This document shows, piece after piece, positions 10,243 to 62,692 of a DNA stretch of 64,000 bases (position 1 is its first letter; every line of letters starts with the position of its first letter). Below the pieces are notes generated by a model. That model searched no databases. It saw only the letters and a program-made list of their open reading frames with translations, and was not told where the DNA came from. The position numbers and the translations under genes were made by a program. The DNA is from Eledone cirrhosa. Taxonomy: Eukaryota. The stretch is from assembly GCA_964016885.1 (NCBI GenBank), contig OZ024742.1, positions 20,088,001-20,152,000 of the forward strand, read 5' to 3'.

Positions 10243-10427
10243 TGAACCAGTAAGACCCCGACAGCTGAGCTCAAGCCGTTTCGACGGCTAATTGAATTAG
10301 CCGTCGAAACGGCTTGAGCTCAGCTGTCGGGGTCTTACTGGTTCCTATTACCCACTCTACTACCTCAAGTATTGAGTACTTTGGTGCGTTATGGTCCACC
10401 TGGTTCCTTACCACATTTCCTTCGTTA
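10243..10427. mobile_element. Hairpin element (family J) in (TA)n carrying the 3' half of a hammerhead; sister copy at 10476-10662
   Basis: Inverted arms centred near 10294 (ggctaatt g aattagcc), containing GAAACGGCuugagcucaGCUGUC ggggu. About 85 nt of extra tail on the right arm. Related pieces at 23535-23592, 25862-25965, 30638-30778 and 59555-59612. Confidence 0.8.
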
Positions 10428-10696
10428 TATATATATATATATATATATATATATATATATATATATATATATATATGGAAAAGTATAACCCCGACGGCAG
10501 AGCTCAAGCCGTTTCGACGGCTATTTCTGAAATACCCGTCGAAACGGCTTGAGCTCTGCCATCGGGGTCATACTTTTTTCTATTTCCCACTCTACTACCC
10601 TAAGTATTGAGTACTCTGGTGCGTTATGGTCCATTTGGTTCCTTACCACAATTCCTTTGTTATATATATATATATATATATATATATATATATATA

Positions 10697-10930
10697 TAAA
10701 ACATGAGAAGAAAGAATAATACTGCGTGGTTGCACATGGGTTACATATGATAAAAATAGTCCTTCGTCAGTGATTTTCCAACCATCATTGGTATTTCATC
10801 GCATTAAAAATCAAATACCTCAGGTTGGTGCGAGCAATAACTGAAACAACTTATTGGGACCAGTAATTCGCGTAAAGAGAGGGGGACAAGTAAAAAACTT
10901 AGAAGGATAAAAGCAAACCGAAGATAGGAT
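10697..10930. repeat. Dispersed (TA)n-embedded repeat, longer copy at 54940-55460
   Basis: Near-identical sequence starting aaaacatgagaagaaagaa at both loci. Confidence 0.75.
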
Positions 10931-11201
10931 ATATATATATATATATATATGGGGCAGCGATTAAGTTAGGTGTGTGTGTGTACACACACACACACACACA
11001 CATATATATATATAGTAATAATAATAAATGTGAAGGCTAAAATCTGAAGAGGGCTCGATAAGGATTATATATATATATACCGATGATGGCTGGAAGATCA
11101 CTGATGACCCTCAGTCCTGTCTTCTTGCTCTAATTTTATTCATATGTATCCCATTTGCAACAACGCAGCACACCATTTTTCATATATATATATATATATA
11201 T

Positions 11202-11570
11202 AGCGGCGATGAATTAGTTTAGCGGTGTTTTTTATATGAAATCGTGTGTCGAAACAGATATTGTTATACTTGGGGAGGATCATATTTGCGTAATATTGCC
11301 AGAATTAATAACAGAACACACTCACTGTTTGGTTGGTTTTCGCTTCTCGCTGTCTTTTATATCTGCGATCTAACTTACTCGGTCCTCAATGTTGCCATTG
11401 ACTGACCGACGGTCAAAAATAATACAGATACAATATAGACACAAACACATATATATAGTTTACATAATTTACATAAATCTTTCGTTGCACATCTGCAACA
11501 TCGTCAGTGGTGTTATATTTTCTTTTCTGGCAATATTACGCAAATATGACCCTCCCCAAGTATAACAATA
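11202..11570 (-). mobile_element. Non-coding pLTR-only derivative of the PLE at 17802-21749, with short inverted arm and hammerhead-like motif (11470-11511)
   Basis: Matches 21430-21749 in reverse complement. 11525-11570 is an inverted copy ending ataacaatat into (TA)n. Confidence 0.88.
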
Positions 11571-11615
11571 TATATATATATATATATATATATATATATA
11601 TATATATATATATAT

Positions 11616-12098
11616 AAACGGAAAAAATGAAACGAAATTTCATTTCCCACTCTTAGTACGGCTGTTACTTAAATATAAGTATGTATACGTACATACATAT
11701 ATGTATACAGACGTATCGTTTATCGTTTTCGGTACCCCGGCCGATTAACTCACTCGATATGCAAATTAGGCTGCTCAGCCGTAAATATGCATAAGTAAAG
11801 TATATGCTTTCAGACGTTCAACAATCTGGCAGGAAGGTATACGTTGCTGACGATAGCTAATAAGCTTGAAACTAGTACATCGTTCCTTTGTCAGTGTTGA
11901 ACAAATGAGCAACGATGGTTGCTAGATACTACGGCTTAATTCGGGATGTTTGTTTACAAACACACCGAGCATTATAATAAATGTTCGGTGAATCCATACG
12001 TACATATATATATATATGTGTGCATGTATGTATATATATATATATACATACTACTGTACGTCTGTATACATATATGTATGTACGTATATATACTTATA
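11616..12098. mobile_element. Family-B hammerhead element with inverted arms in (TA)n; other copies at 16672-17050, 25159-25845 and 30843-31620
   Basis: Repeated terminus acggaaaaaatgaaacgaaatttcattt. Inverted arms share gtacgtctgtatacatatatgtatgtacg. Confidence 0.85.
11842..11882 (+). ncRNA. Minimal type-I hammerhead ribozyme (family B)
   Basis: cguug CUGACGA u AGCU aaua AGCU u GAAAC UA GUA caucg, with palindromic stem III ACUAGU. Confidence 0.8.
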
Positions 12099-59504: not shown

Positions 59505-59600
59505 ACCCCCCGAGAAGCTCGGCTATTCATATACCAGGATAAAAATTTTCATTTAGTCCAGAATTAGCCGTCGAAACGGCTTGAGCTCAGCCGTCGGGGT
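59505..59600 (+). ncRNA. Hammerhead-like fold with non-canonical 5' core (family J), probable 3' end of the Naiad-like element
   Basis: acccc [ccgagaagcu] cggcuauuc...gaauuagccg uc GAAAC GGCU ugagcuc AGCC GUC ggggu. Confidence 0.45.
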
Positions 59601-59664
59601 CCTACTCGTTCCTATATATATATATATATATATATATATATATATATATAGAGAGAGAGAGAGG

Positions 59665-60508
59665 GGAAATACTGTATATATTTTATCTAATGGTTCTTCG
59701 GACTTGCATTTTTATATATAGCTCTGATTAATAATTATTTGCTTAATTAATTCGTCATTGAGCCACACCGTCAAAGGTTGCCAAACTCATATATGTATCT
59801 GTGACTGTCTAATTATATATATATATATATATATATATATATATATATATATATATATATATATATATATATATATATATATATATATATATATATATAT
59901 ATATATATATATCTTTGAATTTAATATATACTCCCATATGGTTAAGTAAAACTTTAGGCAGTATTCGGCTGCGCTTTCTAGCAACCAGCCTACTCGCCGA
60001 CAGGCACCAATCACAAACTTTCTGCCTTGACCGCTAGCCACGTGATAGTTCTTAGTCATTTTGTATTCATTTCTGGCGAGGATCATGGTAGAAGAAACTT
60101 AGTCCAGTCTGAGGTATCTCCTGAAGAGTTCCAGGCCTCGTGGATGTATCCAAGATCGGATATATCCAAAAAGTAGAACGAAACCACCGTTGGTCGGGAC
60201 TAGGAGAATTTTGGTGAAATTTATGTGCATTTTTTCTTCAAACTTCTATTTTGTACCTAATTCCGTGTAGTTAACTATTTGTCTAGTCAATTTCTACAGG
60301 CTAGAAGAAATAATTAGATAAGTGTCATATGGCTGTACATCGGGGAAATTAATCTGTATCATTTGTCTATTATTTCTTCATAAGTACATTTTAAATTTAT
60401 AAGCCTCGTTTATATGATTTTTTATGTGGTTAATTTATACTGATTGAGAGAGGAAATACTGTATATATTTTATCTAATGGTTCTTCGGACTTGCATTTTT
60501 ATATATAT
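59665..60508 (+). mobile_element. Non-coding element bounded by ~55-bp direct repeats, containing a hammerhead
   Basis: gaaatactgtatatattttatctaatggttcttcggacttgcatttttatatata at ~59666 and ~60453. Confidence 0.7.
60117..60199 (+). ncRNA. Type-I hammerhead ribozyme, monomeric stem III, extended stem II (family H)
   Basis: ucuc CUGAAGA GUUC ...(uggauguaucc/ggauauaucca hairpin)... GAAC GAAAC CA ccgu UG GUC ggga. Confidence 0.82.
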
Positions 60509-61020
60509 ACTAGCTGAGGTACCCAGTTTCGCTAAGGTTAACAAATGATAAGAGAAGACCGGCAGAAGAGAAAACGTCTGTATTGAATGCATTGTCTTGT
60601 TTACAGTGTGTGTGTATTGTATATTGTGTGTGTGTTTGTGTGTGTTTGTATATATATATATATATGTGTATGTGTAAGTGTTCGTGCGTGTGTGCCTGTT
60701 TGAGTGTTCGTGTGCGTGCGTGTGCGTGTGTAAACCACCGTTGGAATCGGAGACATAGGCCGCGAAACACGATCATCACTGACAACGAACTCGAGAGAGA
60801 ATCCCTTATGGTTGATTCCCAATCTGCTAGAAATAGCAGTCAGGTTGGTTAGCATACATGGTATGTCTTTCTTCTTCTTTGGTGTTATAAAATTAGTATC
60901 AATAAACTTTCCTGGATATACTCTTATCCCAATCCTGTACATACTTTCCGATTGTCACTTTTCGTTTTTTTCGTGTGATACGCGAAGGAACCAACCAACA
61001 AACATCTCTCTTTTATATCT
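60508..61020 (+). mobile_element. Putative non-autonomous Helitron/Helentron-like element
   Basis: 5' actagctgaggtacccagtttcgctaagg, internal (TG)n, and 3' caaacatctctcttttatat. Recognised by resemblance only. Confidence 0.4.
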
Positions 61021-62272
61021 CTTTTATTTGTTCATTCAAAATATTTTTCATCTAATTTTGTCGTACAATGTACATCAGCAATCTTTATATAATGTTTAAA
61101 ACATTTGAATAGCTGCGATATATGCACCATATAAATCAAAAACGATATGAGAATTGAACACCATACTAAAGCGCCAGTAAGCTTGCTAAGAACCTGCAGA
61201 TAGAAAATTTAATAAATACATGTGGCTTGGTAAACTTTAAGATGTTCTTTCATGGTAGGTTTCTTTTCTCAGCCAGTACGTTAAAGAAAATTGATAGTTA
61301 CAACAATAAAGGTTGAACAGAGAACAATTTTTTTAGCAAACTTAACAATAACTTGTACAACCATAATGGAAATTCCAAATAACAGAAAATACATAAATTA
61401 CATTGTTAGAGCCTCAGAGTATACAATATTTTTTGTTCGGCCCGCGGGAGCAAAGATGAAGAGATTGTTTGGCGAGCTCACTCTAGAGCATCCAATATAC
61501 AATTGACCATGGTTTTCCCAAATGAAGGCCAGCCACTTTTAGGGTTTGACCCTGAGCTTTCTTGATGGTAATTGCAAAGCTTAGTCTCTCTGTTGCTTTA
61601 GTAATATTTTTTGTTCTGGAAAATCTGTTCTTGCGGCCAGGCTAGGACTTTTTAGGTGGCATATCGGCAGTAACAATGAGGATAAACCGTCTGTGCTTTC
61701 GTGAAATAAATACGTTTGTTTATATTTTGTTTTTATGTATGCAAAAATATCTGTACACGAATATATAATTATATATATATATATATATATATATATATAT
61801 ATATATATATATATATATATATATATATATATATATATATATATATATATATATTAAAATAACAGATTAAAGTTTAAGCAAAGAATCGCTGCTTTCACCC
61901 TTAATGAAATCTTCTGGAACTAAAAAAAATCAATCTGTGAACGCAGAAGTAAATATTTCGAAAAATGTTGCAACCGAAAGAAATCAGGAAAATAACACTT
62001 TGCTTCGTGAAGACGTTAGGAATGTCGTATAACCGGAAGTGTTGACATTTGAACATTTTAAAGAAGTGAATATTTAAATAATGTCTTTAATCTTTAAACA
62101 AATTTGAGTAAACAAAAATACCCTCACTTTCTTACTTGGAAAAAGTTACATCTATGGTGCAAATTTGGTGGTGTTTGTTCAAGCCGCTTGGCGGAAAGTT
62201 TGTATATATATATATATATATATATATATATATATATATATATATATATATATATATATATATATATATATA

Positions 62273-62692
62273 TTTAAAAGAATAGAGGTGTAACACAGGA
62301 GTTATGATATATTGGTAAAAGGAAAAGAAAATGCTGACAAATTGTTCCCAGTGAAAAATAGTTTAATTAGGAATAAGTAAAAATTAGTAATAAGTATTGG
62401 TTAGTATTCAGTTTTGGTTTTAAGTTTTTACCGGTTGCGCATTTCTAATGCTTTTCAAAAATAATTTTGAGATAGAGCGCCCGTGATGTTTGCTCTAATC
62501 AGATTAGAGCAAACATCACGGGCGCTCTATCTCAAAATTATTTTTGAAAAGCATTAGAAATGCGCAACCGGTAAAAACTTAAAACCAAAACTGAATACTA
62601 ACCAATACTTATTACTAATTTTTACTTATTCCTAATTAAACTATTTTTCACTGGGAACAATTTATCAGCATTTTCTTTTCCTTTTACCAATA
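62273..62692. mobile_element. Near-perfect hairpin element (~190-bp arms, 1-nt spacer at ~62501) in (TA)n
   Basis: ...gctctaatc a gattagagc...; about 35 nt of extra tail on the left arm. Confidence 0.9.

Follow-up and report, generated by a model that had tools for sequence, protein, structure and literature searches.

In this work, a stretch of 64,000 nucleotides from the genome of Eledone cirrhosa (assembly GCA_964016885.1, contig OZ024742.1, positions 20,088,001 to 20,152,000) was analysed, in which hairpin-shaped insertions of Penelope-like elements (PLEs) are embedded in (TA)n tracts. This whole stretch, hereafter the window, is rich in (TA)n and lies on contig C3 of a genome of 3.0 Gb in 1796 contigs. 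Ten insertions had been named in an earlier interpretation of the letters alone (the sequence-only reading), and the asymmetric layout proposed there was seen in 10/10 of them, all with head-to-head arms in (TA)n and a tail of 37-81 nt on one side. Across the genome, the two arms of a hairpin nearly always end at two different internal sites of the element, and in the Hydra-type families a bulged stem motif follows each of these sites.

Hairpin insertions in the window and in the wider sample

The families were labelled A (10243, 10476), B (11202, 17802, 56648), C (11616, 31322), D (34772), E (56241), F (62273) and G (21832), and their coordinates are collected in Table 1. The internal site (I) is the point where the short-ended arm meets TA, and T is the end of the tail, the length of which was counted from the junction of the short arm with (TA)n. 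Measured in this way, the tails are 81 and ~80 nt in A, 59, 59 and 55 nt in B, 56-60 nt in C (57 in the sequence-only reading), 37 nt in D, 80 nt in E and 39 nt in F. The common stop point noticed in B was found again, the short arms ending between ataaca and atat in 3/3 copies. In the 3.9-kb palindrome of this family, the arms are identical at 1788/1788 bases.

Table 1. Features of the window, with positions counted from its first letter.
Feature	Position	Strand	Details
Family A hairpin (Hydra-type PLE end)	10244-10425	+	inverted I arm 10244-10292, T arm 10296-10425
Family A tail	10345-10425		81 nt (about 85 in the sequence-only reading); stem motif from 10354
Family A hairpin, other subfamily	10477-10660	+	tail ~80 nt, motif from 10589
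Family B hairpin	11203-11567	-	tail 11203-11261 (59 nt), T arm longer, hammerhead-like core at 11507
Family C hairpin	11617-12094		T arm 11617-11715 (-), longer I arm 11722-12094 (+), hammerhead-like core at 11847
Family C solo copy, T-ended	16673-17060	-	
Family B 3.9-kb palindrome	17806-21749		I arm 17806-~19593 (-), T arm ~19591-21749 (+)
Tail of the 3.9-kb palindrome	21691-21749		59 nt
PLE open reading frame, 5'-truncated	19450-21165	+	reverse transcriptase, CX4CxxC linker, GIY-YIG-type nuclease with CCHH
Mirror copy of the B open reading frame	18331-19611	-	
Family G hairpin	21832-22988		new to this analysis; long I arm passing an upstream T site
Family G motif, first	22915	+	
Family G motif, second	22278-22297	-	just past the T site
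Family C tandem unit and inverted piece	25160-25760		T site read through
Family A solo copy, T-ended	30639-30779	-	TA at both sides
Family C hairpin	31323-31618		T arm 31323-31484 (-), I arm 31486-31618 (+)
Family D hairpin	34774-35146	+	tail 35110-35146 (37 nt), hammerhead-like core at 34961
Family E hairpin	56241-56622	-	tail 56241-56320 (80 nt), stem motif near 56289-56311
Family B-type hairpin	56651-57358	+	I arm longer, tail ~55 nt
Family A coding copy, 5'-truncated and frameshifted	57359-59612	+	new to this analysis; solo, ends at I site
Family A coding copy, linker	57956		Hydra-type CxCX5C
Family A coding copy, hammerhead	~59505-59600		type I fold, core changed
Family F hairpin	62274-62689	-	tail 62274-62312 (39 nt), arms equal in length

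The frequency of such structures was estimated with a blind scan for TA-adjacent seeds with an inverted copy in 1.064 Mb, comprising the window and 1.0 Mb of blocks from 14 contigs. An inverted copy was present at 163 of the 1447 TA-adjacent seeds, as counts that stand without a shuffled control. For the 100 of these 163 that lie outside the window and have no long TA inside, tails of 25-180 nt were found in 61, 34 of them being 70-100 nt long, while 4 had tails of 5-25 nt, 16 had tails above 180 nt and 19 were symmetric hits (~10 insertions, each counted from both strands). The layout is thus neither a matter of chance nor confined to this locality. In the 1.0 Mb of blocks, 60 tailed hairpins were counted, which extrapolates to ~2 x 10^5 in the genome if the blocks are typical.

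An origin as miniature inverted-repeat transposable elements (MITEs), as inverted repeats arisen by chance or as fold-back artefacts of the assembly of long reads was considered. In its favour are the ~10 symmetric hairpins in 1.0 Mb, and none of the contigs of other sequencing runs was shown to span the 3.9-kb apex in the window. Contigs matched to this apex showed the linear element only, and their joint between opposite strands is that element and not the apex. Among the contigs of other runs, however, B ends in TA at I in run X7 and at each of the two T positions in run X5, and run X1 contains one inverted joint. Moreover, the element sequence sets the ends, the apices differ from copy to copy, older copies show diverged arms, and PLE open reading frames (ORFs) lie on the arms. 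The ends are also asymmetric, and the spacers range from 0 to kilobases, which does not suit MITEs. Both the MITE and the artefact explanations were therefore rejected for the family as a whole, and the probability left to them is negligible.

Element lineages to which the families belong

Families A, B, D and F and the tail clusters F1, F3, F9, F18 and F19 sit downstream of ORFs with a reverse transcriptase (RT) and, at the C-terminus, a GIY-YIG-type nuclease, the motifs of which were identified by eye. In Pfam, B gave a weak RVT_1 match (E 0.0015, under the cut-off), and the two A pieces gave no match. The Hydra clade is defined by a CxCX5C linker, DKT, RWK, and CxxC and CxH in the nuclease in the excerpted text of PMC8557442. 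The family A ORF (L238) contains CNCPDGSIC (CxCX5C), DKT, CNLC and CKH and shares the (TA)n target and a putative hammerhead with that clade, with RWR in place of RWK. Judged from these marks, family A is a Hydra-type PLE, and five further tail clusters terminate Hydra-type ORFs. The Neptune/Nematis type was recognised by a CX2-5CxxC linker and CCHH in the nuclease. The partner ORFs of B, D and F carry a CX4CxxC linker, and the C, C, H and H of the nuclease were seen by eye in B, so that by their motifs these three families are Neptune/Nematis-type PLEs; D and F end such ORFs at other loci. At the likely position of the DKG motif that separates Neptune from Nematis, B has DKS. The full-length frame of B (L258:2627-6277) encodes 1217 aa and, close to its N-terminus, includes a long insert rich in asparagine, a trait also reported for Adineta elements. 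At least 150 matches of B are 100% identical across 90 aa, and the family must therefore be very young.

For C, E and G, no ORF could be tied to the ends, neither in the sample nor, for E and G, in 30 loci each, and nearby matches look like neighbouring insertions. C and E show PLE hallmarks. Among the insertions as a whole, the traits of endonuclease-bearing PLEs observed were partial tandems forming pseudo-long terminal repeats (pLTRs), an inverted 5'-truncated copy and a one-sided tail. C is a non-coding tandem unit of ~430 nt with a hammerhead-like core, and G is a non-coding tandem unit of ~470 nt. Hammerhead-like cores with stem II were found by pattern in B, C and D and, in full-length copies, by eye in A; within the window, none were found for E, F and G. 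In Rfam, C gave a weak HH9 match (17 bits against a cut-off of 52) and B gave no hammerhead match, while for the whole window no hammerhead was among the matches listed (150 of 256), in which hairpin matches dominated. Further hammerhead-like cores, marking other PLE end fragments, lie at 17670 (-), 23714 (+), 33139 (-) and 34529 (+). A, E and G have a leader motif in common. The sequence-only reading had suggested a PLE origin, and this is supported in that A, B, D and F end coding PLE ORFs. It had also called the families unrelated. Because A ends Hydra-type ORFs and B, D and F end Neptune/Nematis-type ORFs, the families are, by sequence, several PLE lineages rather than unrelated elements.

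Two internal sites and the pairing of the arms

When family references were mapped to the first half of the sample, the 3' ends were bimodal in all seven families A-G and were nearly always followed by TA, so the arm ends fall at two fixed sites and not at random, as had been predicted. For pair counts, the A set was anchored on the ORF and drew 40 loci from 150 listed matches, namely the top 20 once those of the window were set aside and 20 with long open frames. The B set came from 150 listed matches, which gave 25 opposite-strand neighbour pairs, and 18 of the 24 outside the window were examined. The other sets were anchored on the tail (E, n = 30, and F, n = 27, each including the copy of the window; F3 and G, n = 30 each), by which design I+I pairs are undetectable. 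All sets were picked blind to the partner end. The first family A search (30 loci, L001-L030) was excluded from the pair counts because it favoured copies like the query. In A, there were 22 I+T pairs, one doubtful I+I (L257) and one ambiguous case (L236), with 16/40 unpaired or out of range. In B, all 25 listed pairs were head-to-head and 18/18 were I+T, for which the chance is 4 x 10^-6 under independent, equally likely ends. E gave 17 I+T, one partner near I and 12 solo copies, and F gave 13 I+T, one apparent T+T and 13 solo copies. I+T pairs made up 6/30 in F3 (24 without a partner within 1.5 kb) and 10/30 in G (16 without a partner within 1.5 kb and four with odd partners). The apparent T+T in F and the four odd partners in G proved to be arms reading through an upstream T site, and therefore no true T+T pair exists in these sets. 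Pooled over the six genome-wide sets, the count is 86 I+T, 0 true T+T and 1 I+I (86 of 87 clear cases).

Both sites are internal to the element. Copies continuing beyond T include six full-length copies of A, four of B, two of F and copies of C, E, G and F3; in A, a start codon follows ~95 nt past T. The tail of B lies inside the open frame, at its start, like that of Adineta Pen2a in the excerpts of PMC3846280 and PMC8557442. One of the two primers had been placed at the RNA end in the sequence-only reading. This part is not supported, as tandem copies of full length pass T in A, B, C, E, F and G. The distance from I to T is 37-170 nt. The sequence at each site starts with TAT or ATAT in the window families, which would allow a TA primer to pair over 2-5 bases.

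The variable apices that had been described were seen as positions differing among copies, and either arm can be the longer one. The longer arm is T in 13 and I in 9 pairs of A, I in 14 and T in 4 pairs of B (L274 by ORF length only), I in 9 and T in 6 pairs of E (2 equal), and I in 6 and T in 2 pairs of F (5 equal). In B, the excess reaches ~2.8 kb, and the copies with unequal arms are 97-99% identical to a full-length copy. These data bear on the idea that a single T-primed cDNA folds back, or self-primes on an antisense template, and is copied to I, after which the nuclease resolves the intermediate and the tail remains. Such a fold-back accounts for the likeness of the arms and for the absence of T+T pairs. 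It does not suit the 9/22 A and 14/18 B pairs in which the I arm is longer, by kilobases and in very young copies. Furthermore, in six A copies from the random blocks the T arm begins within the tail and has no sequence in common with the I arm. A simple fold-back is excluded for these arms since T-primed cDNA cannot supply sequence that it never held and I-primed cDNA is tailless. Solo I copies also extend from TA to TA, as at 57359-59612. We thus regard fold-back as quite improbable.

In most pairs, the arms join across 0-7 shared bases or with a few additional ones. In A, an arm differs from its own partner by 7.8 and from other copies by 14.5 positions per 130 nt, with 0/20000 permutations as low, and in L021 and L022 rare changes are present on both arms. 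The likeness of partners speaks against priming on two separate RNAs, of which an asymmetric particle pair would start one at I and the other at T, although one active source locus per cell would have the same effect. Two RNAs would need no strand displacement and fit the either-arm-longer pattern equally well; on the other hand, they offer no simple reason for the nearly constant pairing of one I with one T. This origin is considered unlikely. Many short A arms begin near one point inside hammerhead stem II, some with an extra G (window 10296, L001-L030), and this cluster could mark the RNA 5' end. The extra G before the presumed RNA start of A occurred in 6/15 cases without read-through, which is not above chance.

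The target was assessed through paralogous empty sites, which were matched for 12/247 insertions, 9 of them self or tandem matches and 3 informative. At these three sites the TA tract pre-existed (about 50, 13 and 19 nt), the filled states hold more TA (19+54, 59+44, 45+13), and no duplication other than TA was found. TA may therefore grow at or after insertion (3/3 cases; blocks C4b, L092/L111). The insertions stack, new ones landing in the TA tracts that flank older ones, which produces mixed-family chains (window 10218-10698 and 56241-59650). In contrast to ten other stretches examined, block C8:40000001-40050000 has 50 kb without any (TA)5 tract. Larger palindromes in blocks C4 (16378-17095) and C5 (46035-47267) hold whole earlier hairpins and TA tracts twice, perhaps as captured flanks or later duplications. 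At window 1-6255, two 2.0-kb 3' copies of a long interspersed element (LINE) stand head-to-head, 97.7% alike and with the same 5' cut point; the left arm begins 332 bases before the window, 2.6 kb of other LINE-type sequence lies between the arms, and the arrangement resembles a perfect palindrome of a LINE that was split at the apex. The window also contains a 7-kb (TGT)n-type array (43480-50525) and a 32-34 nt minisatellite (50929-53311).

A bulged stem motif and the mode of insertion

In the Hydra-type families, many tails contain, after I, a motif of the form R-CTC[stem-loop]T(N)GAG-Y, in which R and Y are paired and the loop has 1 to ~85 nt. With a strict pattern it was found after I in 12/25 tail clusters (69 hairpins), against a mean of 0.16 and a maximum of 2 in 300 shuffles, and in 0/25 clusters on the reverse strand. 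It starts 6-9 nt after I in 10/12 clusters and 17 and 22 nt after I in the other two. The inner pairs compensate, the first pair being TA in 7, CG in 3, AT in 1 and GC in 1, and one cluster has TTC/GAA. Five of the motif clusters are linked to Hydra-type ORFs, the Hydra-linked F18 fails the strict pattern, and 0/3 Neptune/Nematis-linked clusters fit it. A second copy follows T, observed in A and then in G, E, F1, F7, F19, F21 and a G subfamily. With a relaxed pattern, it was present in 8/8 of these read-throughs (0.9 expected) and in 0/4 of B, C, a C relative and F17; by eye, F3 has it after T and F does not. The motif follows each site by 5-12 nt in most cases, and its recurrence after I and again after T means that the tail length equals the motif spacing. 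Its repetition after both points indicates a probable simultaneous copying of one RNA by the element, starting at two positions. In the excerpts of PMC8557442, six published Hydra consensi were inspected by eye, and the motif is clear in three (one coral, two sea cucumber), weak in one and absent in two; one consensus has two copies, 61 nt apart, before the ORF. In family F, a CTC-ACAC-GAG hairpin without a bulge follows T (L143, L139). A further tailed hairpin, family H (window 62845-63565), has an internal tandem unit and a partial stem motif.

The stem might instead act in single-stranded DNA (cDNA or a displaced strand) as a nuclease signal, the end points being cut sites just upstream. 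Both sites are TA-like, as is the target, the wobble counts pick no strand, and, as cited in the excerpts of PMC11167929, plasmid DNA was cut by the D. virilis nuclease only with the tail sequence. The same excerpts map RT starts, not cuts, to both tail ends. Moreover, no T-ended insertion contains the motif after T, and its action would thus require an intermediate that disappears afterwards. With loops of 1-85 nt, a plain double-stranded site is not tenable. A role of the stem in DNA thus has a small probability.

We hypothesize, with fair confidence, that the hairpins are 5'-truncated PLE insertions in which two RTs prime from both nicked (TA)n strands on one element RNA, at I and at T. The GIY-YIG nuclease would nick both strands of a (TA)n tract, and each 3' TA end would pair with UAU at one site. 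Each stem would hold one RT, probably of a dimer, and both RTs would copy the same RNA stretch upstream, with the RT behind displacing the cDNA made by the one ahead. PLE RTs are not known to have RNase H. Each RT would stop at a variable point, the two cDNA ends would anneal and host repair would fill in; when one primer fails, a solo I or solo T copy would remain. We infer all of these steps (nicking, priming, one RT per stem, a single RNA, annealing and fill-in). The sequence-only reading had proposed two independently primed cDNAs joined head-to-head, and the I+T pairs with either arm longer are consistent with this, the priming being deduced from sequence. For the Hydra-clade PLEs we would go further, with the balance only slightly in favour. 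A two-stem RNA landing pad, its stem kept from this genome to coral and sea cucumber, would place one RT of a dimer at each UAU, and this programmed twin priming on one RNA would build in one step the tail as well as the inverted pLTR and the preference for (TA)n, with the stem spacing setting the tail length.

Several observations weigh against this interpretation. T is not fully fixed, as B uses two positions 12 nt apart and one F19 copy and one A copy stop short of the usual T, and rare I+I hairpins occur in the random blocks (one A event, one D). Post-insertion deletion at the palindrome centre could mimic some cases of a longer I arm, and the arms of B are too young for a same-template comparison (0.33 vs 0.67 mismatches). 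B, C, D and F follow the I+T rule without the stem motif. The first half of the sample, inspected by eye, supplied the strict motif, which fits 3/7 clusters seen only in the second half; the relaxed pattern after T was fixed only once the read-throughs were known. The odds for the motif are optimistic because patterns were set by eye or after the read-throughs had been inspected. Taken by themselves, the stems are weak, with z from 0.0 to -3.0, the first motif of A lies outside the minimum-energy fold, and G.U against A.C counts of 7 vs 4 are no proof that the fold is in the RNA strand.

L1 twin priming gives an inversion through a second primer, supplied by the other target strand, which anneals within the RNA. 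There the second site is random and the cDNAs cover non-overlapping parts, whereas here the site is fixed and both cDNAs copy the same stretch. According to the excerpts of PMC3846280 and PMC8557442, endonuclease-bearing PLEs have a pLTR, an adjacent inverted 5'-truncated copy, a 30-40 bp tail at one end and a (TA)n bias. The published insertion unit, as excerpted, agrees with ours in head-to-head arms, a tail on either side, tandem units, hammerhead-like cores and (TA)n bias. In those excerpts, however, tails are optional and no pairing rule is given, while an I+T rule and tails of 76-170 nt in Hydra-type families were found here; the paired leader motif is unmentioned for the Hydra clade in the excerpts of PMC8557442. 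The Poseidon PLE of Anolis (PAc) cuts and extends both strands in vitro, and its RT starts at two adjacent internal sites that match the tail ends, with a predicted dimer and an AT-rich target (PMC11167929, excerpts). PAc and the families described here thus share two adjacent internal sites equal to the tail ends and an AT-rich target. As far as the same excerpts go, the PAc sites have no target homology and lie within one AC-rich stem-loop, whereas here TAT/ATAT matches (TA)n and, in Hydra-type families, each site has one stem; inverted copies are not treated in that account. The CTC-ACAC-GAG hairpin of family F may be the Neptune-type counterpart of the PAc stem-loop. Non-LTR retrozymes (bioRxiv 10.64898/2026.07.22.740005, in part) may be comparable to C, a non-coding tandem with a hammerhead-like core, and to G, a tandem in which no core was found. 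Unlike retrozymes, C and G insert by the I/T rule of coding PLEs.

Hairpins are not mentioned in the excerpts of PMC13282606. In the titles and abstract starts of the literature outside subscription papers, which include older Penelope work, neither the pairing rule nor the paired stem was reported; the supplementary figures of PMC11167929, outside this comparison, may show structure near the start sites. As far as searched, the layout is already known, and the pairing statistics and the paired leader stem are new. How PLEs come by their inverted copies and one-sided tails counts as an open question in the excerpts of PMC8557442, and those of PMC11167929 leave it open as well. The pairing rule and the arm-length pattern discriminate between the proposed PLE models, and, as a small cis element, the paired stem lends itself to displacement or disruption in assays of a kind that exists already. 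Annotation pipelines may file such hairpins as MITEs or short interspersed elements. PLE RTs are the sister group of telomerase, and a structure that fixes the template start therefore bears on the origin of defined templates. In this genome, the hairpins are abundant and thereby shape the (TA)n landscape.

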